A model generated the notes under the pieces. That model did no database searches, was not told the origin of the DNA, and saw only the letters and a list, made by a program, of their open reading frames with translations. The translations under genes were made by a program, and so were the position numbers. Positions 1-44,220 of a DNA stretch of 64,000 bases are shown in pieces; position 1 is the first letter of the stretch; the number at the start of each line of letters is the position of its first letter. This DNA is from Escherichia coli (GTDB lineage Bacteria > Pseudomonadota > Gammaproteobacteria > Enterobacterales > Enterobacteriaceae). Location: NCBI RefSeq assembly GCF_003334355.1, contig NZ_QOWP01000008.1. One strand, 5' to 3'.

Positions 1-1580
1 GCCGTGTCGGTGCTCATCAGGCCGGCAATGGGCAACGGCAGATGACTTTGGACCTGGCCGTTACGTACCACGCACAGCCCGCCGCCATCCTGAATCACCT
101 GATTGACCGCCAGCGCCATCTCTTCGGCACTGCGACCGATCACCACAATATTATGGCTGTCATGGCTGACCGTCGCAGCCAGCGCACCTTCATTCAGTCC
201 AAAGCCGCCAAGCAAACCACAAGCCGGAGCCAGCCGTTGCCCGTAACGCTCAAGTACGGCAATAAAGCTCACATCATCGCGATCAAAACCATTTTCGCTG
301 TAGACGCTGGAGTGGGAGTGCGTAATCAATTCGTTATGGATGACGTCAATGACCCGATAGCGTTTTCCGGGCGTAAATTGCAGGGCAAAGTCGCTGGCGG
401 AAACTGGCTGGCGGGCAATGGTGTTGCCATATGGCGGAGCGGATTGTGCCAGTCTCGCCGACTCTTCCGCCTGTAAGGTTTGCGCATCAATCGGCTCGCC
501 TTTCACCAGTACCTGCTGCACCGTGACCTTACGCGCATCGCTCAACAGGACGATATCGGCCTGCTTGCCGGGTGCCAGTAAGCCGAGGTGATTCAGACCA
601 AAGTGGCGCGCCGTCGACCAGCTGGCGACGCGATATGCCACATGCAGCGGCACATTGTGTTGTTCGATCAGGCGGCGAATTAAGGCATCGATGTGTCCTT
701 CATGGGCGATCTCCCACGGGTTACGGTCATCGGTACAGAGCATGCATTGCGGGCTGTTAAATTCGTTGATCAACGGTGCCAGCGCGTTGAGATTGCGGGC
801 AGCGGACCCTTCGCGGATCATCAACGACATGCCGAGTTGTAATTTCCGGCGTCCTTCTTCCAGCTGATAACTTTCGTGGCAGTTTTCAATACCCGCAGTA
901 ATATAGGCGTTAAGTTCTTTACCACCCAAACCCGGGCAGTGACCGTCCAGCGTCAGGTGGCGAAATGCATCCAGTTTATCGAGCAGCGCATTCTGCCCGC
1001 TAATTACGCCAGGGTAGTCCATCATTTCTGCAAGGCCGGTAACCTGCGGATGGTCCCGCCAGGCGAGCATCTGTTCAAGGGTAAAACTGGCACCGTTAAC
1101 ATCGCAGCCTTCCAGGGCGGGTACGCAAGAGCTGACCTGTAAGTACTGGTTTTGCCTTGCCTGTTCGGCACAGCGGGCAAACCAGGCGAATCCGGCTTCT
1201 CCCATCACGTTGACGATTTCATGAGGGTCGCAAATAACGGTCGTCAGGCCGCGCGGCAGGGTAGCGGTTTCAAAAGTGACCGGCGTCATCATGCTGGATT
1301 CAATATGCAGGTGAGCATCAATAAACCCTGGCACCGCCGTTGCGCCGCGAGCATCAATCCGCTGCAAAGCCGGAGCATCAGCGTATTCTGCGCCAACACC
1401 GGCAATGTAACGTCCTTTAATCACAATTGGGCCGGAAATTTCTCCGCCATTGATCAGGTCGAGAATAGAGACATTATCAATAATATAATCGGCAACAGCG
1501 TCGCCACGGGAAACGGCTAACAATTCCTGGTATTCAGCCCGGCTAATGTGATGAAATTTATGGTTAATAGAATTATTCAT
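1..1580 (-). CDS. ade: adenine deaminase, 5' portion (about 526 codons); 3' end lies beyond the window start
   Basis: ATG at 1578-1580 on minus strand; reverse translation begins [48 protein letters not shown]; frame is open to position 1 (no stop, hence absent from ORF track); matches recalled E. coli Ade N-terminus. Confidence 0.8.
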
Positions 1581-1754
1581 ATTTTTCTCATTTTGATTTT
1601 ATCAATTTGATTATTATTTATCATAAAGAAACGTCGCGAGATTATTAAAGAATATCCATTAATGTGCAATTGAAATGTGATAATTATCACTGAACCGTTG
1701 TTGTCATTTGTTTTACAAAAGCAAGGGATTAAATCTCCTCCAATGGACAAAAAA

Positions 1755-3089
1755 ATGAATAATGACAATACCGATTACGTGAGTAATGAATCAGGGACGC
1801 TTTCGCGATTATTTAAACTACCTCAGCATGGGACCACCGTCCGCACAGAATTGATTGCGGGGATGACCACTTTTTTAACCATGGTGTACATCGTTTTTGT
1901 GAACCCGCAAATCCTCGGCGCGGCACAAATGGACCCGAAAGTGGTGTTTGTTACCACCTGTTTGATTGCCGGTATCGGCAGTATTGCGATGGGGATATTT
2001 GCTAACTTACCCGTGGCGCTGGCTCCGGCAATGGGGCTGAACGCCTTCTTTGCCTTCGTGGTCGTGGGGGCGATGGGCATCTCCTGGCAGACCGGGATGG
2101 GCGCAATATTCTGGGGCGCAGTTGGACTATTTTTGCTCACGCTGTTTCGTATCCGGTACTGGATGATCTCCAACATTCCCTTAAGTTTACGTATTGGTAT
2201 CACCAGCGGAATTGGATTATTTATCGCCTTAATGGGATTAAAAAATACTGGCGTTATTGTCGCCAATAAAGACACGCTGGTGATGATTGGCGATTTAAGT
2301 TCTCACGGCGTGTTGTTAGGTATTTTAGGGTTTTTTATTATAACCGTGTTGTCATCACGTCATTTTCATGCCGCGGTGCTGGTTTCTATTGTGGTGATGT
2401 CTTGCTGTGGATTATTTTTCGGTGATGTTCATTTTAGCGGCGTCTATTCCATCCCGCCTGATATTAGCGGCGTCATTGGTGAAGTAGATTTGAGCGGCGC
2501 GTTAACACTTGAACTCGCCGGTATCATTTTCTCCTTTATGCTGATCAACCTATTTGATTCATCAGGAACATTAATTGGTGTAACTGATAAAGCGGGCTTA
2601 ATAGATGGTAACGGTAAATTCCCCAATATGAATAAGGCGCTGTATGTTGATAGCGTCAGTTCGGTGGCGGGTGCGTTTATCGGTACCTCGTCTGTTACTG
2701 CCTATATTGAAAGTACTTCTGGTGTGGCAGTCGGTGGCCGCACGGGGCTGACTGCGGTTGTGGTTGGCGTTATGTTCCTGTTGGTTATGTTCTTCTCACC
2801 GCTGGTGGCGATAGTTCCTCCTTACGCAACCGCCGGAGCGTTAATCTTTGTTGGCGTGCTGATGACTTCGAGCCTGGCGCGCGTTAACTGGGATGATTTT
2901 ACCGAATCGGTGCCTGCGTTTATTACCACGGTGATGATGCCCTTTACTTTCTCGATCACCGAAGGGATTGCACTCGGCTTTATGTCGTACTGCATCATGA
3001 AAGTATGCACCGGGCGCTGGCGCGATCTGAACCTGTGTGTGGTGGTGGTCGCAGCTCTGTTTGCACTGAAGATTATTCTGGTGGATTAG
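1755..3089 (+). CDS. adeQ: adenine/purine permease (NCS2/AzgA-like), 444 aa
   Basis: ORF 1677..3089; internal ATG at 1755 gives MNNDNTDYVSNESGTLSRLF and 444 aa; hydrophobic multi-TM protein divergent from ade. Confidence 0.75.
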   Translation: MNNDNTDYVSNESGTLSRLFKLPQHGTTVRTELIAGMTTFLTMVYIVFVNPQILGAAQMDPKVVFVTTCLIAGIGSIAMGIFANLPVALAPAMGLNAFFAFVVVGAMGISWQTGMGAIFWGAVGLFLLTLFRIRYWMISNIPLSLRIGITSGIGLFIALMGLKNTGVIVANKDTLVMIGDLSSHGVLLGILGFFIITVLSSRHFHAAVLVSIVVMSCCGLFFGDVHFSGVYSIPPDISGVIGEVDLSGALTLELAGIIFSFMLINLFDSSGTLIGVTDKAGLIDGNGKFPNMNKALYVDSVSSVAGAFIGTSSVTAYIESTSGVAVGGRTGLTAVVVGVMFLLVMFFSPLVAIVPPYATAGALIFVGVLMTSSLARVNWDDFTESVPAFITTVMMPFTFSITEGIALGFMSYCIMKVCTGRWRDLNLCVVVVAALFALKIILVD

Positions 3090-3141
3090 TAACTGGCGAG
3101 GGTTTCCAGATATCATGAGTTCTGATTACGCAGGAGAACTC

Positions 3142-3594
3142 ATGATCTGGATAATGCTCGCCACGCTGGCGGTAGTGTTTGTGGTTGGTTTTCGGGTGCT
3201 GACATCCGGGGCCAGAAAAGCGATTCGCCGTCTCAGCGATCGGCTGAACATCGATGTCGTACCCGTGGAGTCGATGGTCGATCAAATGGGAAAGTCAGCT
3301 GGTGACGAATTTTTACGTTATTTGCATCGTCCGGATGAGTCGCACCTGCAAAACGCCGCGCAGGTGTTGCTCATCTGGCAAATTGTCATTGTCGATGGTA
3401 GCGAACAGAACCTGCTGCAATGGCATCGGATTTTACAAAAAGCTCGCCTCGCCGCGCCGATTACCGACGCTCAGGTCAGGCTGGCGCTAGGTTTTCTGCG
3501 CGAAACCGAACCTGAAATGCAGGATATTAATGCTTTTCAGATGCGCTATAACGCGTTCTTTCAGCCTGCCGAGGGCGTTCACTGGTTGCATTGA
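3142..3594 (+). CDS. yicN: small inner-membrane protein YicN-like, 150 aa
   Basis: ORF 3115..3594; start placed at MIWIMLATLAVVFVVGF (ATG 3142); one N-terminal hydrophobic helix. Confidence 0.55.
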   Translation: MIWIMLATLAVVFVVGFRVLTSGARKAIRRLSDRLNIDVVPVESMVDQMGKSAGDEFLRYLHRPDESHLQNAAQVLLIWQIVIVDGSEQNLLQWHRILQKARLAAPITDAQVRLALGFLRETEPEMQDINAFQMRYNAFFQPAEGVHWLH

Positions 3595-3602
3595 AACCGT
3601 TT

Positions 3603-3670
3603 CGTCTTATCAGCCTACAGACCGCGCCTGACCTGTCGGGTGGATAAGACGTTCACGCCGCATCCGGTAA
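3603..3670. repeat. REP/BIME-type extragenic palindromic repeat
   Basis: cgtcttatc (3603-3611) inverted with gataagacg (3643-3651); 3641-3670 is reverse complement of a REP-like unit (accggatgcggcgtgaacgtcttatcc). Confidence 0.55.
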
Positions 3671-3804
3671 TCTTTGCCCTGTTCCGTTTCGATCTTAACT
3701 CCAGCTCAAGCAACACCGTAAAAGTTGCAAAAACGTTAAATGCGTCACACATTTCAATGTTAAAGTGGTCGGCTTTTCCCCTGAAACATGCCACGGGTAA
3801 CACC

Positions 3805-4995
3805 ATGAGTGAATTTATTGCCGAAAACCGCGGCGCGGATGCCATCACCCGACCGAACTGGTCAGCCGTTTTCTCGGTGGCGTTTTGTGTCGCCTGTCTG
3901 ATTATCGTTGAGTTTTTGCCCGTCAGTTTGTTGACGCCAATGGCCCAGGATTTAGGCATTTCGGAAGGGGTTGCCGGGCAATCGGTGACCGTGACCGCCT
4001 TTGTGGCAATGTTTGCCAGTTTGTTTATTACCCAGACAATTCAGGCTACTGACCGCCGCTACGTTGTTATTTTGTTTGCCGTTTTGCTGACGCTCTCCTG
4101 CTTGCTGGTTTCCTTTGCTAACTCATTCAGTTTGCTTTTAATCGGTCGTGCCTGTCTGGGGCTGGCGCTGGGCGGGTTCTGGGCGATGTCGGCGTCGCTG
4201 ACCATGCGTCTGGTGCCGCCGCGTACGGTGCCGAAGGCGCTGTCGGTGATCTTCGGCGCGGTTTCTATTGCGCTGGTGATTGCCGCGCCGTTGGGCAGTT
4301 TTTTAGGCGAGCTTATCGGTTGGCGCAATGTCTTTAATGCGGCGGCGGTGATGGGCGTGCTGTGTATTTTCTGGATTATCAAATCATTGCCTTCACTGCC
4401 AGGCGAACCCTCGCATCAGAAACAAAATACTTTCCGCTTATTACAACGTCCGGGTGTGATGGCAGGGATGATCGCCATCTTCATGTCTTTCGCCGGGCAG
4501 TTTGCTTTCTTCACGTATATTCGCCCGGTGTATATGAACCTGGCGGGATTCGGCGTGGATGGCTTAACGCTGGTGCTGTTGAGTTTTGGTATCGCCAGCT
4601 TTATTGGTACGTCGCTTTCGTCGTTCATTCTTAAACGTTCGGTAAAACTGGCCTTAGCAGGCGCGCCGTTAATACTGGCTGTGAGTGCGTTGGTACTGAC
4701 GTTGTGGGGAAGCGATAAAATCGTTGCTACCGGCGTGGCGATTATCTGGGGGCTAACTTTTGCATTGGTTCCTGTCGGCTGGTCAACGTGGATCACCCGC
4801 TCGCTGGCCGATCAGGCAGAAAAAGCCGGGTCTATTCAGGTGGCGGTTATTCAGCTTGCTAATACCTGTGGCGCGGCAATCGGCGGTTATGCGCTGGATA
4901 ATATTGGTCTGACTTCGCCGTTGATGTTGTCCGGCACATTGATGTTGCTGACTGCATTGTTGGTTACTGCAAAGGTGAAAATGAAGAAATCCTGA
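3805..4995 (+). CDS. nepI: MFS purine ribonucleoside efflux transporter NepI-like, 396 aa
   Basis: ORF 3640..4995 overextends into the REP element; ATG at 3805 ([19 protein letters not shown]) gives 396 aa; 12-TM MFS-type composition. Confidence 0.7.
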
Positions 4996-5035
4996 TATCA
5001 GGTAAAGAAGCGTTGGTCAGTAGTTGTTGCTGTTC

Positions 5036-5329
5036 TTACATATCCGGGCATTCTACCTTACCCAACGCTTCCCAATAATTGCTCTGATTATTACGTTCCA
5101 TCGCCACGATGGCCTCGCGTATATGTTGTTTATTGTTTTCATCTGACAACATTAACTTTTCCCACGCTTCATCTGATAATGACGCCTGTGGCGTGCAAAT
5201 TTTACGTAAATCTTGTAATACCGTGGTTTTCTCTTTTGCGGACTGCAGTGAGCTAAAAGGCGACTCGGCGTATACGATGCCTGGCATAGCGAAAAAAGTG
5301 AAAATAAGCAGTAGTGTCGTTGGTTTCAT
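5036..5329 (-). CDS. yicS: small secreted protein YicS-like, 97 aa
   Basis: ORF track 97 aa with N-terminal signal-peptide-like segment MKPTTLLLIFTFFAMPGIVYA. Confidence 0.6.
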   Translation of the reverse strand: MKPTTLLLIFTFFAMPGIVYAESPFSSLQSAKEKTTVLQDLRKICTPQASLSDEAWEKLMLSDENNKQHIREAIVAMERNNQSNYWEALGKVECPDM

Positions 5330-5550
5330 GGATTCAACCTTTTACAAATGTGTATCGAATGAAGCATAAGTGTAGTTTGCTTTCATCGCTCTCATCATGC
5401 TGTACGAAACGCGCTTGCGTGGTCAGTAAGAAGTGCCAGACTTTATATTCCACTTTTATTCCTTTTTATTCTTATCGATAGCGTTTCGTTTTTTAAACCG
5501 CAGCGACCTTACCGCTATAGTCAGGTAATCATTAATAAAAGGATAAAAAA

Positions 5551-6369
5551 ATGAAACTGACAACACATCATCTACGGACAGGGGCCGCATTATTGCTGGC
5601 CGGAATTCTGCTGGCAGGTTGCGACCAGAGTAGCAGCGATGCAAAACACATTAAAGTTGGCGTTATAAATGGCGCAGAACAAGATGTCGCGGAAGTCGCT
5701 AAAAAGGTGGCAAAAGAGAAATATGGCCTCGATGTTGAACTGGTAGGATTTAGCGGTTCGTTGCTACCGAACGATGCGACAAATCATGGCGAACTTGATG
5801 CGAATGTCTTCCAGCATCGACCCTTTCTTGAACAAGATAATCAGGCGCATGGTTATAAACTGGTAGCGGTGGGAAATACGTTTGTCTTCCCTATGGCGGG
5901 TTATTCCAAAAAAATCAAAACCGTGGCGCAAATAAAAGAAGGCGCGACAGTGGCGATCCCCAACGACCCGACCAACCTTGGTCGCGCACTTTTACTGTTG
6001 CAAAAAGAGAAGCTAATTACTCTGAAAGAGGGAAAAGGGTTATTACCTACCGCGCTGGATATAACCGATAATCCTCGTCATTTGCAGATTATGGAACTCG
6101 AGGGGGCGCAGCTCCCGCGCGTACTGGATGATCCCAAAGTTGATGTGGCGATTATCAGCACCACTTACATTCAGCAGACCGGGCTTTCTCCGGTGCACGA
6201 CAGCGTATTTATTGAAGATAAAAATTCGCCGTATGTGAATATTTTGGTGGCACGGGAAGATAATAAGAATGCAGAAAACGTGAAGGAATTTCTGCAATCT
6301 TATCAATCATCCGAAGTCGCTAAAGCGGCAGAAACCATCTTTAACGGTGGCGCGGTGCCTGGCTGGTAA
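5551..6369 (+). CDS. nlpA: lipoprotein-28 (NlpA/MetQ family methionine-binding lipoprotein), 272 aa
   Basis: 272 aa; signal peptide plus lipobox LLAGC at residues 19-23; periplasmic binding protein-like. Confidence 0.8.
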   Translation: MKLTTHHLRTGAALLLAGILLAGCDQSSSDAKHIKVGVINGAEQDVAEVAKKVAKEKYGLDVELVGFSGSLLPNDATNHGELDANVFQHRPFLEQDNQAHGYKLVAVGNTFVFPMAGYSKKIKTVAQIKEGATVAIPNDPTNLGRALLLLQKEKLITLKEGKGLLPTALDITDNPRHLQIMELEGAQLPRVLDDPKVDVAIISTTYIQQTGLSPVHDSVFIEDKNSPYVNILVAREDNKNAENVKEFLQSYQSSEVAKAAETIFNGGAVPGW

Positions 6370-6372
6370 TTC

Positions 6373-7296
6373 TCACTCATCCCGCGCCGGACGATTTATT
6401 TTTCTGGCGCGGCGACGGGAATCCATTGAAATCAAAATTACCGATGACAGAATCAGCAGCGTTCCCAGCCAGTCCGGTAATGTGAACGTGATCCCCAGCA
6501 ACAGCAAAGAGAGTAGCGCGCTACTTAATGGTTCTGCACAGCTCAAAATGCTGGCTTTTGGACCGCCAATTAATTGTGCTCCTTTCAGGTACAGACTAAA
6601 TGTCAGGGACGTACCAATGACGATCAAATAAAAAAACGCCAAAATCAAACTGCCGTTAACGACAAAGTTTGTCCCTTGTCTGGCATAAAAAGGCAACAGA
6701 ATCAGACCGCCGATCAGCATACTCCAGCCGACGACAGACAACGTGCCATAGCGGGCAATTAGCGTTGAGGGATAGGTGGTATAGAATGCAGCAGCAAATG
6801 CCGAGGCAATGCCCCAGAACAACGCGGCAGGAGAGATCGATAATGACGTCGGATTACCGTGTGTCACCAATAAAAAAGTCCCGACCAGCGATGTCAAAAT
6901 AGCGCAGAAAACCAGAATGCCCGGGCGCGATTTACGCACCAGTGAGAACCAGGCGACGATAATCGTCGGTGAGAGGAATTGCAGCACCGTTGCCGTGGCT
7001 GCGTTCGATTTTTCGATGGTTAGCAAAAAAGTGAGCTGTACAGTTAGCGCGCCAACCACGGAAAAAATCAGCAGGCTAATGGCATCTTTATGATTGTTAA
7101 TAATAGAAAAGATTTTATCGCCATGAACAAATGACAGCGTCAGTAGAATCAAACCGGCGAATATCAAACGCGTCATAGTCAAAAACTGCGACGACATCTG
7201 GCTTTGCTCCATGATGTATTGCGCGCAGACCCCTGAACTTCCCCACAACACGGCGGCAATCAGAACGTTCAGCATCCCCTTTCTGGTGGAACCCAT
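6373..7296 (-). CDS. yicL: EamA/DMT family inner membrane transporter, 307 aa
   Basis: ORF track 307 aa, about 10 TM segments, position between nlpA and setC. Confidence 0.7.
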
Positions 7297-7406
7297 TTTT
7301 CCCTCTGCATACTGTTTTGTCGTTTATGTATGCAGGCATGATAGCAAAAATGGCGAGGATGGCTCTGTTTGCGCCACGCCGATTTTTCTTAGCCCAGACT
7401 GGTGAG

Positions 7407-8591
7407 CTAAATATCTTTAATAAACAGCAGGCAAATTATCGCAATACCCAACATCCCTATCGCCAGCCAGAACAACGCATGGTAGCTCCAGATTTCAACC
7501 ATAATTCCGTCAACAGAGCCGGCGATAATCCAGCCGACGCGTGAAGTATTTGCATATAACGTTGTCGCAGAGCCTATTTTTTCAGGCATCAGGTCCTGAA
7601 ATTAAAGCATGCCGATACCACAGAGAATACCAAGGAAGATGGCATTAAGAATTTGCAATTCCAGCTCAACCGCCGGAGTCGTCGCCATGAGTACGCTGGC
7701 GTAAAAACACATTCCACTCACGATAGCAATGAGCATTAATAGTCGCTTGCCAATACGTTTCATGTAATAGCCTGCGATTAACATCATCGGAATTTCCAGA
7801 CCGGCAGCGATACCAATCATTTCTCCAGCCAGTTTATCGGTTAGATGCAGTTCATCAATAATAAATAGCGGCATATTTATCATGTAGAGATTATTCGCCG
7901 CCCACATCATTGAACAGACCACAAAAAGTAGCCGCGTATCCCGCTTCCTGTGGGTGGAGGGTAAAATTTCTACGGGTTGGGTAACGACAGGAATATTTCT
8001 TTGTATTGATGGCAAAAACAACCAGACTATCAGCCCGCAAACAACAAATGCGATGGCAGCGGTGAGATACATCACTTTAAAACTAAATCCCATTGCCAGT
8101 TCATAAGCGAGCGGTGGCCCGATAACCCAGGCAAGCGAGATCTGAGCACGTAAAAATGTACTGAACATGACCGTCTCACGGCCTGTTCTGTCGGCGTGTT
8201 CACGGGCGAGGGCGAACATTTGCGGGTTTGCGGTGGAAGCAAAACTACTCAGAAGTACGCCCGTTGAGAGGAGAATGAAGTAGTTGCGATTCCACGCAAA
8301 AAGCGTGCAGGCCAGCACTCCAAATAAGCAACATAGCAGAATCAGTAATTTACGGTCGCCTTGTTTATCGGAGTGCCTTGCCAGAAATTGACTGACCAGA
8401 ATTCCCATAATAGCGCTACCGGTGAAGAAAAAACCTACCATTATAGGACGGGCTTTCAGTTCATCTGCGAGGAATATACTTAGGGTAGGAGTCTGAAGAG
8501 CGCCCGCAATACCCGTCAGAAAGGCGACAAGTAAAAATGCCGCGGCAGTGAGATCAAGTATTTTTGATGGAGTGGTAGCCGTTTTTTGCAT
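7407..8591 (-). pseudogene. setC: sugar efflux transporter SetC homolog interrupted by one in-frame TAA (codon 330 of a 394-codon frame)
   Basis: ORFs 7602..8591 (329 aa) and 7407..7589 (60 aa) are in the same frame, separated only by TAA (minus-strand 7602-7604) plus four codons (F Q D L); 329+1+4+60 = 394 codons, the length recalled for K-12 SetC. Confidence 0.6.
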
Positions 8592-26961: not shown

Positions 26962-27786
26962 CTATTTCTTCTCTGTAATTTTTACACTGTTTTCCAACTG
27001 CTTGATGCTGACCTGCGGGGTCGGCAACTCCTCAGGCATGGTTCCGCCAAGTTCCTGAATGGTTTGCCTCACCTTGCGACCCACGTCAAAGTGTGTGGTG
27101 TTTGCTTGCTGTTTTGAATTCACGCCATCCCGCTTGAGTTTTTCTTCTGTTTGGGTAGCTCGAAAGAGATTAGCCGCCAGTTCTGTTGAACCCATATGAT
27201 CCAGGATCTTCTGACTCTTTTTCAGCCCCTTCCGCTGATGGATGGCTTTCTGATCTAATCCACCATACAGCCCCCGGTAACCATGATTCTGAAATATGGC
27301 GAAATCGATAGCTGTCGCTACCCCAGCTTGCTGCGCTGCCTCAACTAATTGTTTGTTATGTTCTTTCAATTCATTTCTCAGAAAAAGACGCTTTTCGTCT
27401 TCACGAAGTTGCCTGAAAGCTTCATCGTCAGCCAGCTCCTGCCGTCGGGTCTGGATAGCAAAATAAGTTTGCCCTGCCGCAATAACCGGTTTCGCAGGGT
27501 CGCCGTTTTGTACTACCAGGTAACAGGCATAGCGGGAGAGATGAACATCTTCAAGTTCTCGTTGAGCCCCTGAACCTAATACAACCATTTTGGTGGTTTC
27601 AACGAAATGGTCAGATGCAGCTTGATTGCTGGCTTCGCACGCTTGAGTCGCGCGGGCAAGTACCTTTTGAAAATTGCGCCAGTCCCGATAATCCAGTAAC
27701 GGTGCCAATTCTCTCGCTGACCAAAATTCTTGCCCTTCAGTGCCATAATGCCGTATTTCTTCAAAAGGTTGATGATGTTCGTTCAT
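26962..27786 (-). CDS. dinD: DNA-damage-inducible protein D, 274 aa
   Basis: ORF 26962..27798; start MNEHHQPFEE; LexA box directly upstream. Confidence 0.7.
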   Translation of the reverse strand: MNEHHQPFEEIRHYGTEGQEFWSARELAPLLDYRDWRNFQKVLARATQACEASNQAASDHFVETTKMVVLGSGAQRELEDVHLSRYACYLVVQNGDPAKPVIAAGQTYFAIQTRRQELADDEAFRQLREDEKRLFLRNELKEHNKQLVEAAQQAGVATAIDFAIFQNHGYRGLYGGLDQKAIHQRKGLKKSQKILDHMGSTELAANLFRATQTEEKLKRDGVNSKQQANTTHFDVGRKVRQTIQELGGTMPEELPTPQVSIKQLENSVKITEKK

Positions 27787-27831
27787 TGCCCACTCCATGT
27801 GATATCGATTGCAAAGAAAGTAAATCTGTAA

Positions 27832-27847
27832 CTGTATTTATATACAG
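27832..27847. promoter_or_regulatory. LexA (SOS) box CTGTATTTATATACAG upstream of dinD
   Basis: exact CTGT-N8-ACAG palindrome with AT-rich centre, about 45 bp upstream of the dinD start on the minus strand. Confidence 0.7.
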
Positions 27848-27939
27848 TTGTGAGTATCTCACGTTCTCAGTGTGCTGGGCAAAAAGACATCGCAAAATCT
27901 GGAACAGGCACGCAAAACAGAATTGAAAGTTGCGGAGAA

Positions 27940-27970
27940 GAAAAATGCCGCTCTGTTTGAGTGGGCGGCA
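27940..27970 (-). terminator. rho-independent terminator downstream of yicC
   Basis: minus strand reads atgccgcc-loop-ggcggcat followed by TTTTT, about 40 nt after the yicC stop. Confidence 0.55.
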
Positions 27971-28007
27971 TTTGTGAAGGCTGAAAAGTAAGAATTGGCG
28001 TTACGAG

Positions 28008-28871
28008 TTATTCAATGTTCTGAATCTGTTCGCGCATCTGCTCAATCAACACTTTCAGCTCAATCGCGGAGTTTGTCACTTCGGCATTGATAGACTTCGA
28101 AGCAAGAGTGTTCGACTCGCGGTTGAACTCCTGCATCATAAAGTCCAGACGACGACCAACGGCTTCTTTTTTCTTCAGAATGTTGTACGTCTCATTAACA
28201 TGCGCTTCGAGGCGGTCCAGTTCTTCGGCAACGTCAATTCGTTGTGCCAGCAGAACCAACTCCTGCTCCAGACGGTTGTTTTCCAACTGCACCTGAGCAT
28301 CTTCCAGCTTCGCGACCAAGCGTTCACGCTGCCATTGCAGGATTTCCGGCATATGGGAGCGGACTTTGACCACTTCGGCGGTGACGCCTTCCAGACGCTG
28401 CTCAATCAACGCTTTCAGCGCCTGACCTTCGGTTTCGCGAGCGATGATAAAGTCATCCAGGGTGCCATCCAACGCCGCGAGAATTTCAGCGGCAATCGCG
28501 TCGAGATCCTGCTCCTGGGCTGCCATCACGCCCGGCCAGCGTAGAATATCAACCGGGTTGATTTCCCCTTCGTCACTCTGCATTTTTACCCAGTTCGCGG
28601 CAGTTACCAGCTGTTTAGCCAGTTTTTCATTGAGGATCAGCTCACCTTGTGCGCTAACATCTGGCTCATAGCGCAGGGTACATTCCACTTTACCGCGCGT
28701 CAGGCGAGAACGAATACGCTCACGAACGACAGGTTCAAGGCTACGGAACTGCTCCGGCAGACGAAAGTAAGTTTCCAGATAACGCTGGTTTACCGAGCGC
28801 ATTTCCCAGGTTGCGCTCCCCCATTCACCCTTGATTTCACGCCGGGCGTAGGCGGTCATACTGCGGATCAT
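28008..28871 (-). CDS. yicC: YicC-family stress-induced protein, 287 aa
   Basis: 287 aa; MIRSMTAYARREIKGEWGSATWEMRSVNQRYLE; divergent from rph. Confidence 0.75.
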   Translation of the reverse strand: MIRSMTAYARREIKGEWGSATWEMRSVNQRYLETYFRLPEQFRSLEPVVRERIRSRLTRGKVECTLRYEPDVSAQGELILNEKLAKQLVTAANWVKMQSDEGEINPVDILRWPGVMAAQEQDLDAIAAEILAALDGTLDDFIIARETEGQALKALIEQRLEGVTAEVVKVRSHMPEILQWQRERLVAKLEDAQVQLENNRLEQELVLLAQRIDVAEELDRLEAHVNETYNILKKKEAVGRRLDFMMQEFNRESNTLASKSINAEVTNSAIELKVLIEQMREQIQNIE

Positions 28872-28997
28872 AGACGTTCCTGTTTATAAAAGGAGAGGTG
28901 GAAGGATTATAGCCATCGATGCCTTGTCAGGATAGGAATAACCGCCGGAAGTCCGTATAATGCGCAGCCACATTTGTTTCAAGCCGGAGATTTCAAT

Positions 28998-29714
28998 ATG
29001 CGTCCAGCAGGCCGTAGCAATAATCAGGTGCGTCCCGTTACCCTGACTCGTAACTATACAAAACATGCAGAAGGCTCGGTGCTGGTCGAATTTGGCGATA
29101 CCAAAGTGTTGTGTACCGCCTCTATTGAAGAAGGCGTGCCGCGCTTCCTGAAAGGTCAGGGCCAGGGCTGGATCACCGCAGAGTACGGCATGCTGCCACG
29201 TTCTACCCACACCCGTAACGCTCGTGAAGCGGCGAAAGGTAAGCAGGGTGGACGCACAATGGAAATCCAGCGTCTGATCGCCCGTGCTCTTCGCGCGGCA
29301 GTAGATTTGAAAGCGCTGGGTGAGTTCACCATTACGCTGGACTGCGACGTGCTTCAGGCTGATGGTGGCACGCGTACCGCGTCGATTACGGGTGCCTGCG
29401 TGGCGCTGGCAGATGCGCTACAGAAGCTGGTGGAAAACGGCAAGCTGAAAACCAACCCGATGAAAGGGATGGTAGCCGCAGTTTCTGTCGGAATTGTGAA
29501 CGGCGAAGCGGTTTGCGATCTGGAATACGTTGAAGACTCAGCCGCAGAGACCGACATGAACGTAGTGATGACCGAAGACGGGCGCATCATTGAAGTGCAG
29601 GGGACGGCAGAAGGCGAGCCGTTCACCCATGAAGAGTTACTCACCTTGTTGGCGCTGGCCCGAGGGGGAATCGAATCCATTGTAGCGACGCAGAAGGCGG
29701 CGCTGGCAAACTGA
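28998..29714 (+). CDS. rph: ribonuclease PH, full-length 238 aa
   Basis: ORF 28974..29714; start [16 protein letters not shown] (ATG 28998); C-terminus ...[14 protein letters not shown] is intact (not the K-12 rph-1 truncated allele). Confidence 0.9.
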
Positions 29715-29720
29715 TTTTTA

Positions 29721-29747
29721 AGGCGACTGATGAGTCGCCTTTTTTTT
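29721..29747 (+). terminator. pyrE attenuator / rph terminator hairpin
   Basis: aggcgact-gatg-agtcgcct stem-loop followed by TTTTTTT, between the rph stop and the pyrE start. Confidence 0.75.
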
Positions 29748-29779
29748 GTCTGTAGAAAAGTAAGATGAGGAGCGAAGGC

Positions 29780-30421
29780 ATGAAACCATATCAGCGCCAG
29801 TTTATTGAATTTGCGCTTAGCAAGCAGGTGTTAAAGTTTGGCGAGTTTACGCTGAAATCCGGGCGTAAAAGCCCCTATTTCTTCAACGCCGGGCTGTTTA
29901 ATACCGGGCGCGATCTGGCACTGTTAGGCCGTTTTTACGCTGAAGCATTGGTGGATTCCGGCATTGAGTTCGATCTGCTGTTTGGCCCTGCTTACAAAGG
30001 GATCCCGATTGCTACCACAACCGCCGTGGCGCTGGCGGAGCATCATGACCTGGACCTGCCGTACTGCTTTAACCGCAAAGAGGCAAAAGACCACGGTGAA
30101 GGCGGCAATCTGGTCGGTAGCGCGTTACAAGGACGCGTAATGCTGGTGGATGATGTGATCACCGCCGGAACGGCGATTCGCGAGTCGATGGAAATTATTC
30201 AGGCCAATGGCGCGACGCTTGCTGGCGTATTGATTTCGCTTGATCGTCAGGAACGCGGGCGCGGCGAGATTTCGGCGATTCAGGAAGTTGAGCGTGATTA
30301 CAACTGCAAAGTGATCTCTATCATCACCCTGAAAGATCTGATTGCCTACCTGGAAGAGAAGCCAGAAATGGCGGAACATCTGGCGGCGGTTAAAGCCTAT
30401 CGCGAAGAGTTTGGCGTTTAA
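29780..30421 (+). CDS. pyrE: orotate phosphoribosyltransferase, 213 aa
   Basis: ORF 29765..30421; start [23 protein letters not shown]; PRPP-binding motif [13 protein letters not shown]. Confidence 0.9.
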
Positions 30422-30457
30422 AGAAACTCGCCGGATGAAAAGTCATCCGGCGTCATA

Positions 30458-31054
30458 TTACTGCAACTGCGCGGCAATTAGCGGCCAGCGGGCGTCAAAA
30501 TCATCCGTCGGGCGGTATTTAAATTCGCTGCGGACAAAGCGTGACAGCATACCTTCACAGAAGGCCAGGATCTGGCTTGCCAGCAGGGTTTCATCGGTGG
30601 TGTAACCTTCACCCTCACGCATTCTCTTTTCACGCAATACCTGGCGCAGCTGCGCTTCAATACGCTCGAACAGCTGGTTGATGCGCCCTTGCAGGCGATC
30701 CTGTTCAAACATTAGCGCATGACCAGTGAGGATGCGGGTCAGGCCAGGATTACGCTCACCAAAACCGAGAAGCAGCAACACAATCAGACGCAGGCGCGCT
30801 GTGGTGTCTTTCTCATCTTTCAGAATCAGGTTGATGCGAGTAATCAGGCTATCTTCGATAAACTCAATCAGGCTATCGAACATGCGGGTCTTACTGGGGA
30901 AGTGGCGATACAGTGCCGCTTCGGAAACGCCGACAGAGGCGGCCAGTTTTGCCGTCGTGATACGTTGGCTTCCATCGCTGGATTCCAGCATCAGCGCCAG
31001 AGACTGAAGTATTTCCTCGCGACGGTTCCTTTTCGCAGTTTGTTTTTCTGCCAT
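30458..31054 (-). CDS. slmA: nucleoid occlusion factor SlmA (TetR family), 198 aa
   Basis: ORF 30458..31096; start [17 protein letters not shown] (ATG 31052-31054); HTH region. Confidence 0.85.
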
Positions 31055-31160
31055 GTTACAAAATACCCCTGAAAATAAGCACTTGCCAGGCGGCACCCAC
31101 GCTATGACCGCAAACGAAATGTTTGCGGCTATGTTATGACGTTATTCGGATGCGTATGTG

Positions 31161-31619
31161 TTACTGACGACCAGAGTGACCAAAGCCGCCTTCACCGCGG
31201 TCGGTGGCGTCGAAATCTTCCACCAGATTAAATTCAGCCTGTACTACCGGAACAAAAATCATCTGGGCGATGCGTTCGCCAGGTTGAATGGTGAAGCTGT
31301 CCTGACCACGGTTCCACACGGAAATCATCAACTGGCCCTGATAGTCGGAATCGATCAATCCTACCAGGTTACCAAGCACGATACCGTGCTTATGTCCCAA
31401 TCCGGAGCGCGGCAGCATCATTGCCGCCAGTGAAGGATCGGCAATATGAATCGCCAGCCCGGTCGGAACCAGCGTAGTGTCACCCGGAGCCAGTTCTACG
31501 GCGTCGTCGAGACAGGCACGCAGGTCAAGTCCGGCAGAGCCAGAGGTGGCATAAGTCGGGAGCGGAAATTCCTTCCCAACGCGCGGGTCCAGAATCTTAA
31601 CGTCGATTTTTTTCATCAT
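31161..31619 (-). CDS. dut: dUTP pyrophosphatase
   Basis: 152 aa [38 protein letters not shown]; 3' overlap with coaBC start region. Confidence 0.9.
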
Positions 31620-32817
31620 AACGGGTCACGATCTCGTCGAGTAATAATTGGCCAAGGAGCTCTTTGCGCTCAAGCGGTAAGACTTTATCTCCGTCCTGCC
31701 AGAAAAGGTGTAATGCGTTGTTGTCGCTGTTAAACCCTTGAGTTGGCTGGGAAACATCGTTCGCGCAGATCAGATCAAGGTTTTTACGGATACGTTTTTG
31801 CCGGGCGTATTCTTCCACATTATTTGTTTCGGCGGCAAATCCAACGACGTAGGGTCGATGGTCTTTTAGTGCGGCAACGCCTGCGACGATATCGGGGTTT
31901 TTAACCATTTTTATTGTTAATTCATCACCCTGCGTGGCCTGCTTTTTGATTTTCTCTGGGGCCACGGTAGCTGCGCGATAATCAGCCACGGCGGCGCAAC
32001 CGATAAAAATATTTTGCTGCTGTACAGAAGCATTCACGGCGGCTTCCATTTCCAGCGCAGTCATCACATCAACACGTTTAACAAACGGTGGCGTCGGTAG
32101 TGAAACCGGACCTGATACCAGCGTGACGTTCGCGCCACGACGGGCAGCGGCGGCGGCGATAGCAAAACCCATCTTGCCGGAGCTGTGATTAGAGATATAA
32201 CGCACCGGATCGAGCGGTTCACGCGTCGGGCCGGCGGTAATCATAATGTTCAGATGTTTCAGGTCGTTGACGGGCGAAAAATGCGCCACCGCCATATCCA
32301 CAATGGTTAACGGATCGAGCATTCGCCCAGGACCGATATCACCACAAGCCTGACTGCCACTGTCTGGCCCCCAGATGAGCAAACCACGGGAAGCAAGCAC
32401 CTCTAAATTATGCTGCGTGGCAGCGGCACGGTACATCTGCTGGTTCATGGCGGGGAGCACGGCTACAGGCGCAGGTGTAGCCAGACAAATCGTCGATACC
32501 AGGTCATTCGCCATTCCGGCAGCAACACGGGCAATCAAATCTGCCGTGGCAGGGGCGAGAATCACTAAATCAGCCCATTTACCCAGCTCAATATGGCCCA
32601 TAGCGGCTTCGGCTGCCGGGTCAAGCAGACTGTCGGAAACGGGATACCCAGAAACCGCCTGCAAGCTAAGTGGGGTGATAAAGGCTTTTGCCGCTTCGGT
32701 CATGGCTACGCGGACGTCGGCCCCGCGATCGCGCAAACGACGCACCAGTTCAGGGGTTTTATAGGCAGCAATACCGCCGCTAACGCCGAGAACGATTTTT
32801 TTACCGGCCAGGCTCAT
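31597..32817 (-). CDS. coaBC: bifunctional phosphopantothenoylcysteine decarboxylase / synthetase, 406 aa
   Basis: ORF 31597..32889; start [20 protein letters not shown] (ATG 32815-32817); flavoprotein and DFP domains. Confidence 0.9.
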
Positions 32818-32982
32818 GATGATTTTTCCTGTTGGGTGACACCAGAAGTTGGCGATTTTATCACAATACTTTTGTTGTCGTGCCTTCACCTGAGAATCAC
32901 TTTGCGAGGCGCTTTCCAGGATTGAAAACTGGCCGTCGATTTAACGGAACGGCTATGACAGGATGCGAGCACCACAAAGGAG

Positions 32983-33657
32983 GTGAAGGTGAAAAACAAT
33001 GCACTGCTGTTGATGCCGCGCGAAAAAATGCTGAAGTTTGGTATTAGCGCCTTAACGGATGTCGAGCTGCTGGCGCTATTTCTGCGTACCGGAACGCGCG
33101 GTAAAGATGTATTAACCCTGGCAAAAGAGATGCTGGAGAATTTCGGCTCTCTTTATGGCTTGTTAACCTCTGAATATGAACAATTTAGTGGTGTTCATGG
33201 AATTGGCGTGGCGAAATTTGCCCAGTTAAAGGGGATTGCTGAACTGGCGCGGCGTTACTACAACGTGCGGATGCGTGAAGAAAGCCCTTTACTCAGCCCG
33301 GAGATGACGCGGGAATTTTTACAAAGCCAGCTCACGGGTGAGGAGCGGGAGATCTTTATGGTGATCTTTCTCGACTCACAACACCGGGTTATAACGCATA
33401 GCCGTCTTTTTTCCGGCACGCTAAACCATGTTGAAGTCCATCCTCGGGAAATTATCCGCGAAGCGATAAAAATAAACGCCTCGGCGCTGATCCTTGCACA
33501 TAATCACCCTTCGGGTTGTGCTGAACCCAGTAAAGCGGATAAACTCATTACTGAACGGATAATAAAGAGTTGTCAGTTCATGGATTTACGCGTGCTCGAC
33601 CATATCGTGATTGGGCGTGGAGAGTATGTTTCTTTTGCCGAACGCGGCTGGATTTAA
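32983..33657 (+). CDS. radC: RadC/YicR family JAB-domain protein, 224 aa
   Basis: 224 aa ORF; C-terminal JAMM-like motif HNHPSG; position between coaBC and rpmB. Confidence 0.75.
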
Positions 33658-33699
33658 CCCGCTATGCGCGATCCTTCGGGATCTTTGTCTGTTCGGGAC

Positions 33700-33728
33700 T
33701 TGAGCACATCGCTGAGTCAGCGTATACT
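33700..33728 (+). promoter_or_regulatory. candidate sigma-70 promoter of rpmB-rpmG (TTGAGC - 17 bp - TATACT)
   Basis: -35 TTGAGC at 33700-33705, 17-bp spacer, -10 TATACT at 33723-33728, about 145 bp upstream of rpmB. Confidence 0.5.
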
Positions 33729-33852
33729 ACGCCACCTTTGAGAATCTCGGGTTTGGCATTTGGGCCTGGCAATCGAGAGTTCACATAGAACTGCGATGAC
33801 CGGGCTGTAAAGCCTGACGAGGCGCCAATACCCCATACGAAGCTCGAGCTAA

Positions 33853-34110
<258 letters not shown>

Positions 34111-34127
34111 GTACTTAGAGGAAATAA

Positions 34128-34298
<171 letters not shown>

Positions 34299-34320
34299 TT
34301 TCCGCTTTGATGTAACAAAA

Positions 34321-34346
34321 AACCTCGCTCCGGCGGGGTTTTTTGT
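34321..34346 (+). terminator. rho-independent terminator after rpmG
   Basis: GC-rich imperfect hairpin aacctcgc..gcggggtt followed by TTTTTTG. Confidence 0.5.
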
Positions 34347-34395
34347 TATCTGCTTGCCCCCATATTGACTGCATCTGTTCATTCCTGGAGATGCT

Positions 34396-35205
34396 ATGCC
34401 TGAATTACCCGAAGTTGAAACCAGCCGCCGCGGCATAGAACCGCATCTCGTTGGTGCAACCATTCTTCATGCGGTGGTGCGCAACGGACGCTTGCGCTGG
34501 CCGGTTTCAGAAGAGATCTACCGATTAAGCGATCAACCAGTGCTTAGCGTGCAGCGGCGGGCTAAATATCTGCTGCTGGAGCTGCCTGAGGGCTGGATTA
34601 TCATTCATTTGGGGATGTCTGGCAGCCTGCGCATCCTTCCAGAAGAACTTCCCCCTGAAAAGCATGACCATGTGGATTTGGTGATGAGCAACGGCAAAGT
34701 GCTGCGCTACACCGATCCGCGCCGCTTTGGTGCCTGGCTGTGGACCAAAGAGCTGGAAGGGCATAATGTGCTGGCCCATCTTGGACCGGAGCCGCTTAGC
34801 GACGATTTCAACGGTGAGTACCTGCATCAGAAGTGCGCGAAGAAAAAAACGGCGATCAAACCGTGGCTGATGGATAACAAGCTGGTGGTAGGCGTAGGGA
34901 ATATCTATGCCAGCGAATCTCTGTTTGCGGCGGGGATCCATCCGGATCGGCTGGCGTCATCACTGTCGCTGGCGGAGTGCGAATTGCTGGCTCGGGTGAT
35001 TAAAGCGGTGTTGCTGCGTTCGATTGAGCAGGGCGGTACAACGCTGAAAGATTTTCTGCAAAGTGATGGTAAACCGGGCTATTTCGCGCAGGAATTGCAA
35101 GTTTACGGGCGAAAAGGTGAGCCGTGTCGGGTGTGCGGTACGCCGATTGTGGCGACTAAACATGCGCAGCGGGCAACGTTTTATTGTCGGCAGTGCCAGA
35201 AGTAA
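34396..35205 (+). CDS. mutM: formamidopyrimidine-DNA glycosylase, 269 aa
   Basis: N-terminal MPELPEVE catalytic motif; C-terminal zinc finger CRVCGTPI...YCRQCQ. Confidence 0.92.
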
Positions 35206-35213
35206 TTCATGCG

Positions 35214-35235
35214 CGCCGGATGGCATACCATCCGG
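35214..35235. repeat. REP-like stem-loop between convergent mutM and coaD
   Basis: gccggatgg-cata-ccatccggc perfect 9-bp stem. Confidence 0.45.
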
Positions 35236-35243
35236 CATAAACG

Positions 35244-37008
<1,765 letters not shown>

Positions 37009-37320
37009 AGTAAATAGCTGACTTATGGATGTGCTGGGGATTCTATGTATTTAGCTGTGGCTTTACCATTACTTTTCCCGTTTTTGACTTAAATAGCAAT
37101 TTACCCGCCAATTCTTGCTGAACATCTATACTTTTTTTGTATTTTATGCGATTCATTGATTTCTGCTGTACGTGCAGGAAGGAATCGCAGAGCAACAGTG
37201 AAAGAATATGGTTGCTAATGATTATATTTGATTGATTTCTTTATTGAAAATCAACAATGTGCTTAAAAATCATTCGGGTCGGATTGCCGCGAAAGAAGTG
37301 ATACACTAGCGCGTCAATAT

Positions 37321-37370
37321 CAGTGCGGTATCAGTATTCAGGTAGCTGTTGAGCCTGGGGCGGTAGCGTG
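37321..37370 (+). promoter_or_regulatory. JUMPstart element with ops site (GGCGGTAGCGTG at 37359-37370), RfaH-dependent antitermination signal for the waaQ operon
   Basis: cagtgcggtatcagtattcaggtagctgttgagcctggggcggtagcgtg matches the JUMPstart/ops consensus, about 50 bp upstream of waaQ. Confidence 0.75.
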
Positions 37371-37419
37371 CTTTTTCTGCTTCACCTTAATCGGATAATC
37401 TCAACAAAAAGAGTTACTT

Positions 37420-38478
37420 GTGGATAAGCCATTTCGAAGAATTTTGCTCATTAAGATGCGTTTTCATGGGGATATGTTATTAACTACTCCCGTCATTAGT
37501 TCGCTGAAAAAAAATTACCCTGACGCAAAAATCGATGTGCTGCTTTATCAGGACACCATCCCGATCCTGTCTGAAAATCCAGAGATTAACGCGCTCTACG
37601 GCATAAAAAATAAAAAAGCAAAAGCCTCAGAAAAAATTGCCAACTTTTTTCATCTCATCAAGGTATTACGTGCCAATAAGTATGACCTTATCGTCAATCT
37701 TACCGATCAATGGATGGTTGCTATACTGGTTCGCTTATTAAATGCCCGTGTGAAAATTTCCCAGGATTATCATCATCGGCAGTCTGCTTTTTGGCGTAAA
37801 AGTTTCACCCATTTGGTGCCGTTGCAGGGTGGAAATGTGGTGGAAAGTAACTTATCCGTGCTGATACCATTGGGACTTGATTCGTTGGTGAAGCAGACAA
37901 CCATGAGTTACCCGCCTGCAAGCTGGAAACGTATGCGTCGCGAACTTGATCACGCTGGTGTTGGACAAAATTATGTGGTTATCCAACCTACGGCGCGGCA
38001 AATCTTCAAATGCTGGGACAACGCCAAGTTTTCCGCTGTGATTGATGCCTTACATGCTCGTGGTTATGAAGTCGTTCTGACGTCCGGCCCAGATAAAGAC
38101 GATCTGGCCTGCGTCAATGAAATTGCGCAGGGATGCCAGACGCCACCAGTAACGGCGCTGGCTGGAAAGGTGACCTTCCCGGAACTTGGTGCGTTAATCG
38201 ATCATGCGCAGCTGTTTATTGGCGTTGATTCCGCACCGGCGCATATTGCCGCTGCAGTTAATACGCCGCTGATATCGCTGTTTGGTGCGACAGACCATAT
38301 TTTCTGGCGTCCCTGGTCAAATAACATGATTCAATTCTGGGCGGGAGATTACCGGGAAATGCCAACGCGCGATCAGCGTGACCGAAATGAGATGTATCTT
38401 TCGGTTATTCCGGCGGCAGATGTCATTGCTGCTGTCGATAAATTACTGCCCTCCTCCACGACAGGTACGTCGTTATGA
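37420..38478 (+). CDS. waaQ: LPS heptosyltransferase III (GT9)
   Basis: ORF track 352 aa; start codon in the track is GTG at 37420 (exact start uncertain); RILLIKMRFHGDMLLTTPVISSLKK heptosyltransferase N-terminus. Confidence 0.8.
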   Translation: MDKPFRRILLIKMRFHGDMLLTTPVISSLKKNYPDAKIDVLLYQDTIPILSENPEINALYGIKNKKAKASEKIANFFHLIKVLRANKYDLIVNLTDQWMVAILVRLLNARVKISQDYHHRQSAFWRKSFTHLVPLQGGNVVESNLSVLIPLGLDSLVKQTTMSYPPASWKRMRRELDHAGVGQNYVVIQPTARQIFKCWDNAKFSAVIDALHARGYEVVLTSGPDKDDLACVNEIAQGCQTPPVTALAGKVTFPELGALIDHAQLFIGVDSAPAHIAAAVNTPLISLFGATDHIFWRPWSNNMIQFWAGDYREMPTRDQRDRNEMYLSVIPAADVIAAVDKLLPSSTTGTSL

Positions 38479-39599
38479 TCGTTGCTTTTTGTTTATATAA
38501 ATATTTTCCCTTTGGCGGTTTGCAGCGCGATTTTATGCGTATTGCTCAGACAGTCGCCGCCCGAGGTCATCATGTTCGGGTTTATACCCAGTCGTGGGAA
38601 GGCGAATGCCCTGATGTATTTGAACTGATCAAAGTACCGGTTAAATCGCATACCAATCACGGGCGCAATGCGGAGTATTTTGCCTGGGTGCAAAAACATT
38701 TACGCGAACATCCCGTCGATAAAGTCGTTGGATTCAACAAAATGCCGGGGCTGGACGTTTATTATGCCGCTGATGTTTGTTATGCCGAGAAAGTAGCGCA
38801 GGAGAAAGGCTTTTTCTATCGCCTGACGTCACGTTATCGCCATTATGCCGCCTTTGAGCGGGCAACCTTCGAACAGGGTAAGCCGACACAGCTGCTGATG
38901 CTGACAGATAAGCAAATCGCCGATTTCCAGAAACATTATCAGACTGAAGCGGAGCGTTTTCATATTCTGCCACCGGGGATTTATCCTGATCGTAAATATA
39001 GCCAGCAGCCAGCCAATAGCCGTGAAATCTTCCGTAAGAAGAATGGAATAACCGAACAACAATATTTATTGTTGCAGGTCGGTTCAGACTTCACGCGTAA
39101 AGGTGTCGATCGTTCCATTGAAGCACTTGCTTCGTTACCGGATTCGCTGCGCCACAACACATTGCTATATGTTGTTGGGCAGGATAAACCGCGAAAATTT
39201 GAGGCACTGGCAGAAAAACGCGGCGTGCGCAGTAATGTTCACTTCTTCTCGGGGCGCAACGATGTCTCGGAATTAATGGCGGCGGCGGATTTATTACTGC
39301 ATCCTGCCTACCAGGAAGCGGCGGGAATTGTGCTGCTGGAAGCGATTACTGCAGGATTACCGGTACTAACAACAGCCGTTTGTGGCTATGCGCATTATAT
39401 TGTCGAGGCCAATTGCGGCGAGGCTATTGTTGAGCCATTCCGCCAGGAAACATTGAATGAGATTTTACGCAAAGCGTTAACGCAATCTTCATTGCGCCAG
39501 GCCTGGGCGGAAAATGCGCGACATTATGCTGATACACAAGATTTATACAGTCTGCCAGAGAAAGCGGCGGATATCATAACGGGTGGTCTGGATGGTTGA
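38475..39599 (+). CDS. waaG: LPS core alpha-1,3-glucosyltransferase I (GT4), 374 aa
   Basis: 374 aa; [24 protein letters not shown]; 4-bp overlap with the waaQ stop. Confidence 0.85.
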
Positions 39600-40389
39600 A
39601 CTTAAAGAGCCGTTTGCCACGTTATGGCGCGGCAAAGATCCTTTTGAGGAAGTTAAAACCTTGCAGGGTGAGGTATTTCGTGAACTGGAAACTCGCCGTA
39701 CTCTGCGCTTTGAAATGGCGGGCAAAAGCTATTTTCTCAAATGGCATCGCGGCACGACCCTGAAAGAGATAATCAAAAATTTACTCTCATTGCGGATGCC
39801 AGTATTAGGCGCTGACCGCGAATGGAATGCGATTCATCGACTGCGGGATGTCGGCGTTGATACTATGTATGGGGTGGCATTTGGCGAAAAAGGCATGAAT
39901 CCGCTGACCAGAACTTCATTTATTATTACCGAAGATCTGACACCAACCATAAGTCTGGAAGATTACTGTGCTGACTGGGCGACTAACCCTCCAGATGTTC
40001 GCGTAAAGCGTATGCTTATTAAGCGTGTCGCGACGATGGTGCGCGATATGCATGCTGCGGGCATTAACCACCGTGACTGTTATATCTGTCATTTCCTGCT
40101 GCACTTGCCTTTTTCCGGTAAGGAAGAGGAGTTAAAAATTTCGGTAATTGACCTGCACCGGGCGCAGCTTCGCACGCGCGTTCCACGTCGTTGGCGGGAT
40201 AAAGATCTTATTGGGCTTTATTTTTCTTCGATGAATATCGACCTGACTCAGCGGGATATCTGGCGGTTTATGAAAGTGTATTTTGCCGCCCCGCTTAAAG
40301 ACATTCTCAAGCAGGAACAAGGACTGCTGTCGCAAGCAGAAGCAAAAGCCACAAAAATCAGGGAAAGAACGATTCGAAAATCGTTGTAA
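39592..40389 (+). CDS. waaP: LPS core heptose(I) kinase, 265 aa
   Basis: ORF 39583..40389; start [21 protein letters not shown]; kinase-like HRDCYICH motif. Confidence 0.85.
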
Positions 40390-40404
40390 TTTCCGGAGAG
40401 AAAT

Positions 40405-41421: not shown

Positions 41422-41437
41422 AATTGAGAAAAGTTAA

Positions 41438-42433: not shown

Positions 42434-42442
42434 ATTACTCTT

Positions 42443-43135: not shown

Positions 43136-43160
43136 ACCACACAGTCAAAACGGAACCAAC

Positions 43161-44189: not shown

Positions 44190-44220
44190 TTATTAAGATT
44201 AATCATCCAGAGATTTTTTA

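Follow-up and report, generated by a model that had tools for sequence, protein, structure and literature searches.

The 174-bp spacer between adeD and adeQ is the divergent promoter region common to these two genes. The reading that we favor for it, with a probability of roughly 0.8, has an AT-rich divergent promoter that is silenced by H-NS, presumably through coating of the spacer and the adjoining gene ends, is served on both sides by one CRP dimer, and can be activated by insertion sequences (IS). The locus, its H-NS silencing, its IS activation, and its Crp dependence have all been published already for identical DNA. The modest addition made here is comparative, namely, a phase-locked CRP box and an invariant promoter-like block inside the AT-rich spacer. 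An account of this spacer that involves only H-NS is incomplete; the strongest selection is found on the CRP box and the core-promoter-like block.

The window, i.e., the whole 64-kb stretch of Escherichia coli DNA that was analyzed, starts within adeD (Table 1). The translation of this gene matches AdeD homologs over residues 1-526. With the adeD start codon (reverse complement) at 1578-1580 and the adeQ ATG at 1755, the two genes are separated by 174 bp, and K-12 strains have the same genes and the same gap according to the RefSeq annotation of the identical DNA. The gene names and the spacer coordinates (1581-1754) given in the sequence-only reading agree exactly with this annotation, in which ade is now named adeD, and the A/T-tract string quoted there is located at 1593-1628.

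Of 5426 complete E. coli genomes, 5409 contain the adeD/adeQ region, and 5060 of these do so with at least 99% identity. The source strain of the window is not K-12; over its first 12 kb, the best matches reach 99.9% identity. Compared with K-12, it has a different waa region and, in the first 3.5 kb, eight mismatches to MG1655, none of which is in the control region. The segment 1383-2397 is a 100% match to MG1655; besides the spacer, which corresponds to MG1655 3,843,790-3,843,963, it takes in 198 nt from the 5' end of adeD and 643 nt from that of adeQ. Because of this identity, the published H-NS result from K-12 applies to the cis-DNA of this strain.

Table 1. Features of the adeD/adeQ control region and its surroundings (positions are those of the window; for IS1 insertions in other genomes, the equivalent positions are given).
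Feature	Position	Strand	Remarks
adeD (ade/yicP), adenine deaminase, 5' part	1-1580	-	526 codons inside the window, the gene extending beyond its first position; annotated by RefSeq in identical DNA
Divergent AT-rich spacer, 174 bp	1581-1754		GC 0.270; identical to K-12
adeQ (yicO), adenine permease, 444 aa	1755-3089	+	RefSeq annotation of identical DNA
Wider low-GC patch, spacer and 5' ends of both genes	1450-1850		150-bp segments inside the patch have GC 0.23-0.41
CRP box TGTGATAATTATCACT	1676-1691, center 1683.5		9 of 10 core positions match TGTGA-N6-TCACA; half-sites conserved
Ultraconserved block adjoining the adeD start, ATCAAATTGATAAAATCAAAATGAGAA (ade strand)	1585-1611	-	22 of 27 positions invariant in 12 aligned taxa
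Extended -10-like TGaTAAAAT, putative adeD core promoter	1596-1604	-	Promoter scan match with TG
Alternative upstream -10-like AATAAT for adeD	1641-1646	-	Promoter scan; moderately conserved, TTATT nearly invariant
Tandem 14-bp direct repeat TTTTCTCATTTTGA / TTTTATCAATTTGA	1583-1610		12 of 14 identical
Weak -10-like TACAAA, putative for adeQ	1714-1719	+	33 bp from CRP center
Conserved AATGGA with Shine-Dalgarno-like GGA, 7 nt before the adeQ ATG	1743-1748	+	G1745 and G1746 invariant
IS1 in EC45	1460-1468		adeD is a pseudogene
IS1 in ET776 and ES9	1539-1550		Inside adeD codons 11-14
IS1 in 1368KP	1764-1773		Inside adeQ codons 4-6; adeQ start truncated

The spacer was described from its sequence as very AT-rich with A/T tracts, and the numbers bear this out. 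Its GC content is 0.270 compared with 0.500 for the 64-kb window, and it contains six runs of A or T that are four or more bases long, as well as 13 TpA steps. Among all 174-bp segments in the 64 kb, only 1.3% are as AT-rich as the spacer, and the others are confined to the LPS-core (waa) cluster and to 8.6-9.0 kb, where the K-12 map has the setC/selC area. The K-12 C600 annotation of the first 50 kb has 22 intergenic spacers that are 100 bp or longer, and this one has the lowest GC content of them all. The mean over all 32 spacers listed is 0.41, and the other divergent spacers on the K-12 C600 map have values of 0.37-0.47. The AT-richness may alternatively be viewed as nothing more than the ordinary composition of promoter and intergenic DNA, with no special role for H-NS at this locus in the source strain. 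This view agrees with the generally AT-rich state of intergenic DNA in the region, with the lack of a close H-NS motif match in the spacer, with the strongest constraints falling on promoter and CRP elements, and with the Crp-dependent expression of the ade locus seen in wild type. However, the spacer stands out even by the standard of intergenic DNA, its sequence is identical to K-12 DNA for which H-NS silencing has been published (as reported by citing papers), and its AT-richness persists across 12 aligned taxa in segments that have no sequence conservation. We consider ordinary composition a very improbable explanation.

DNA shape is consistent with the favored reading of an H-NS-silenced promoter region. 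Curvature was calculated with a wedge model and compared among 174-bp segments; the mean of the spacer is at the 98.6th percentile. The proposed check of DNA curvature came out as expected, with a spacer that is predicted to be intrinsically curved. The curvature peaks are near 1585, 1608, and 1748, i.e., toward both spacer ends. In both composition and predicted shape, this promoter DNA has the AT-rich and/or curved character of H-NS-silenced loci. The AT-rich patch continues for ~130 bp into adeD and ~100 bp into adeQ, and the first 150 nt of these genes have 41 and 43% GC, respectively. Segments of 150 bp that overlap the edges of the patch reach GC values of 0.46-0.49. This patch is likely the extent of any H-NS binding. 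The coding DNA of adeD has 55% GC, and so the gene is not a typical AT-rich foreign gene.

The ade gene of K-12 is cryptic, silenced by H-NS, and activated by insertion elements (Petersen 2002, as cited in PMC2753651 and PMC13274399). The original report on ade (Petersen, Moller and Valentin-Hansen 2002, J Biol Chem 277:31373) enters here through these citing papers, and the K-12 promoter region that it concerns is the same locus with the same AT-rich spacer, for which H-NS silencing and IS activation are cited. Both genes were also listed as "novel and validated" Crp-activated transcription units in a 2021 study (PMC8085971, Table 1), which was based on transcriptomes of crp deletion and gel shift of Crp on the listed promoters, including adeD/adeQ. 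Because of this published Crp activation, H-NS silencing is only half of the published picture. For the same reason, ade can be called cryptic only with reference to standard laboratory growth conditions, given that the activation of adeD and adeQ by Crp has gel-shift support. The suggestion that the spacer is consistent with the H-NS silencing architecture of K-12 is supported by its identity to MG1655, by the silencing cited for that DNA, and by a composition and predicted curvature that fit the preference of H-NS.

The nucleation of H-NS can involve a high-affinity 10-mer, TCGATAAATT, which is an optional feature. Matches to this 10-mer with zero or one mismatch are absent from the spacer, and those with two mismatches occur at chance frequency. 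Motif prediction, the other check put forward with the sequence-only reading, thus found no close match in the spacer, and the case for H-NS that can be made from sequence rests on composition and shape. In the mechanism that we propose, H-NS would coat the AT-rich patch of ~400 bp (about 1450-1850), such that the adeD promoter would be shut under standard laboratory growth conditions. An IS insertion or the loss of hns would then lift the silencing, either by breaking the H-NS complex or, for an insertion, by supplying an outward promoter.

For comparisons across Enterobacterales, we aligned the spacers of 12-16 taxa, and all counts of invariant positions were derived from 12 aligned taxa. 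The CRP box at 1676-1691 reads TGTGA-N6-TCACT, with one mismatch to TGTGA-N6-TCACA, and belongs to a first conserved cluster, TGTGA-N6-TCACTGAA, at 1676-1694. Its half-sites are invariant or nearly so among the 12 taxa and the central 6 bp are variable. Fixed half-sites combined with six free central bases are the classic signature of a CRP box. In the type strain of E. albertii, the left half-site reads TGTTA instead of TGTGA (equivalent to window position 1679), which is the sole core change among the 12 taxa. CRP-like boxes were also found upstream of adeD in Hafnia and Serratia sp. DD3. Across the 64 kb, the count of CRP consensus matches is not above chance (two found versus 1.75 expected). 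Because the motif count by itself is not significant, the case for this CRP site is built on conservation and on published data.

The position of the CRP box relative to the adeD-proximal block (1585-1611) is also conserved. The distance between the two centers is 75.5-78.5 bp in 12 taxa and is shorter in Pluralibacter and Hafnia (67.5 bp) and in Serratia sp. DD3 (65.5 bp). The shortening corresponds to about one helical turn (10 bp in Pluralibacter and Hafnia and 12 bp in Serratia sp. DD3), such that the helical phasing of CRP to the block is approximately kept. The one-turn change in Pluralibacter and Hafnia supports a putative constraint on phasing.

We propose that a single CRP dimer serves both the adeD and adeQ promoters. 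CRP would be located ~42 bp upstream of the weak adeQ -10 promoter (near -42.5), which is a class II-like position, and ~93 bp upstream of the predicted adeD start (about -93 to -95), which is a class I-like position. The textbook positions for CRP are -41.5 and -92.5. The positions proposed here are based on predicted start sites and are 1-2 bp off these values, and the assignment to classes is accordingly putative. Divergent gene pairs with one common CRP site, which acts as class I for one gene and class II for the other, are a known arrangement, and the ade locus likewise has one TGTGA-N6-TCAC box between its genes. At ade, the spacing does not change on one side, and its changes on the other side preserve the phase.

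The fixed side is that of adeQ. The spacing between the CRP box and the adeQ -10 is gap-free in 12 of 12 aligned taxa, and length variation is confined to the adeQ leader. Two positions in TACAAA (A1715 and A1717) and one just upstream (T1713) are invariant in these taxa. The promoter scan found no consensus sigma-70 match on the adeQ strand, which fits a dependence on an activator. The reading frame of adeQ is open upstream to a GTG at 1677, which is inside the CRP box, and also includes an in-frame ATG at 1743. This ATG was rejected as the adeQ start because it is out of frame in Citrobacter, and therefore the annotated start at 1755 is likely right. A 22-nt inverted repeat with 77% complementarity (1687-1708 and 1761-1782) links the region of the right CRP half-site to adeQ codons 3-10, and is probably due to chance.

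On the adeD side, conservation is concentrated in the 27-bp block. The fraction of invariant positions in this block far exceeds the 9% observed for third-codon positions of the flanking genes, and the block also exceeds codon positions 1-2 of these genes in conservation (12 aligned taxa in both comparisons). Its core, ATCAnnTTGAT, recurs in Edwardsiella, Hafnia, and Serratia sp. DD3. Within the block, the hexamer TAAAAT of the extended -10 (1601-1596, with TG at 1604-1603) is invariant in all 12 aligned taxa. The block may be explained as an extended -10 followed by the initial transcribed region with a weak Shine-Dalgarno sequence. In Edwardsiella and Hafnia, the leader that follows the core is longer and has a strong Shine-Dalgarno sequence.

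Two candidate promoters were found for adeD. The start predicted from the extended -10 is at ~1589, which leaves a leader of 9 nt only. Activating insertions at ade reportedly lie between -145 and +13, counted from the mapped start. Because the start at ~1589 gives such a short leader and fits this span poorly, we also considered the upstream promoter (-10 at 1646-1641), which may be the mapped one.

The high conservation of the block could also reflect an operator for a specific regulator, e.g., one responsive to purine or adenine, that goes beyond a core promoter. The 22 invariant positions out of 27, a level above that of codon position 2 in the flanking genes, would suit such an operator, as would the persistence of the core in Edwardsiella, Hafnia, and Serratia. 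The block further contains TTGAT-N3-ATCAA-N-TTGAT with overlapping half-sites, which gives two palindromes (TTGAT-N3-ATCAA and ATCAA-N-TTGAT), in addition to the 14-bp direct repeat, although this two-copy repeat may be a chance occurrence. However, the block holds a complete extended -10, the hexamer of which is the invariant core, and the sequence in Edwardsiella and Hafnia (TGaTAA, then the longer leader and strong Shine-Dalgarno sequence) is as expected for a promoter. No regulator gene accompanies the cassette in the seven genera inspected. At BLAST sensitivity, E. coli genomes contain a single copy of the block; a second copy would have hinted at a regulon. The half-sites of FNR are separated by N4, a spacing that the TTGAT-N3-ATCAA palindrome does not have. 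An operator is therefore unlikely. The more specific version, in which an undescribed regulator uses the block as its operator and gates adenine catabolism while H-NS and CRP act as general layers, appears doubtful to a somewhat greater degree; if true, ade would be a conditionally induced gene rather than a cryptic one.

Another candidate for direct regulation at the spacer is PlaR (YiaJ), for which genomic SELEX names adeQ and adeD among the predicted targets. The published PlaR box is ATnTGAAACnnnGTTCAnTT, and by eye the spacer has no convincing match to it. AT-rich DNA is also a common by-product of SELEX. Direct control by PlaR is quite improbable.

The block might also act in the transcript, whether as a 5' UTR element, as the target of an sRNA, or as a four-codon upstream ORF coupled to the ade start; this seems to us highly improbable. 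A transcript starting from the upstream -10 (1646-1641) would place the block in a 54-nt leader, and a mini-ORF (ATG AGA AAA ATA TGA; 1578-1592, minus strand) has a stop codon that overlaps the adeD ATG. On the other hand, the frame and the stop of this mini-ORF are lost in E. whittamii, Atlantibacter, and Yokenella. The predicted fold of the adeD leader is no better than that of shuffled sequence (z = 0.17), and a search of window positions 1-8000 against Rfam, including the purine riboswitch, found no match at E-values up to 1. The extended -10 with its initial transcribed region remains our preferred explanation for the block.

The divergent adeD/adeQ pair was found in at least 10 genera, namely, Escherichia, Citrobacter, Kluyvera, Cedecea, Pluralibacter, Atlantibacter, Yokenella, Edwardsiella, Hafnia, and Morganella. 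A pattern-based scan with one genome per species returned 51 loci; the cassette in these belongs to only 11 enterobacterial genera, and none is from Salmonella, Klebsiella, or Enterobacter. The result of this pattern-based scan suggests that the cassette has a patchy distribution. The neighboring genes of the cassette differ among the seven loci inspected, and no co-traveling regulator gene was found beside it in these seven genera. From Escherichia to Pluralibacter, the spacer has a length of 172-178 bp and GC of 0.26-0.30. The spacer GC is 0.26-0.33 even at sequence identities as low as 25-50%. In Serratia sp. DD3, adeD is not paired with adeQ, and a block reading ATCAtTTTGAT and a CRP-like box are still located upstream of adeD. 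The gene upstream of adeD in this strain is a 168-aa ORF (1445-1951, minus strand) with a Cys-x2-Cys ... His-x3-His pattern, and it has no match in NCBIfam.

These comparisons indicate that the spacer is not featureless landing DNA for H-NS, in that its elements are kept and their phasing is roughly preserved in at least 10 genera and in different genomic contexts. The conservation of the CRP box and the block across genera argues for expression of the "cryptic" adenine deaminase, and for selection on it, in nature. The box and the block also provide concrete targets for work on the balance between CRP activation and H-NS silencing.

IS insertions upstream of adeD were enriched in adenine cross-feeding cocultures, in which a partner feeds adenine to E. 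coli (PMC13274399). Natural IS1 insertions within 574 bp around the spacer were found in at least four complete E. coli genomes among the matches listed, with target duplications of ~9-12 bp in these four genomes. The three natural sites in these matches are all in the AT-rich patch and none is in the spacer proper; two of the three interrupt adeD itself.

Among known systems, the control region of the bgl operon is cryptic, H-NS-silenced, CRP-dependent, and activated by IS1 or IS5. At ade, as at bgl, an AT-rich promoter region would have H-NS dominating over a CRP-dependent promoter, with relief by IS or by hns mutation. By analogy, the ade locus may function like bgl as a CRP-dependent, H-NS-dominated, and IS-activatable locus. 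Unlike bgl, ade is a divergent two-gene cassette with one common CRP site. To our knowledge, the antiterminator layer known for bgl has no counterpart at ade.

Two other AT-rich regions were observed elsewhere in the window. The segment 8608-8975 is very AT-rich (GC down to 0.22) and strongly curved, with a curvature peak at 8806. In the K-12 map, this segment is upstream of setC and beside a rhuM remnant near the tRNA-Sec gene. The low-GC clusters at 41019-46159 form the largest AT-rich tract of the window. The surrounding region at about 40285-46391 has no alignment to K-12 C600, and the preceding 27754-40285 is only 92.7% identical to it. The source strain probably carries an LPS-core (waa) type other than that of K-12.
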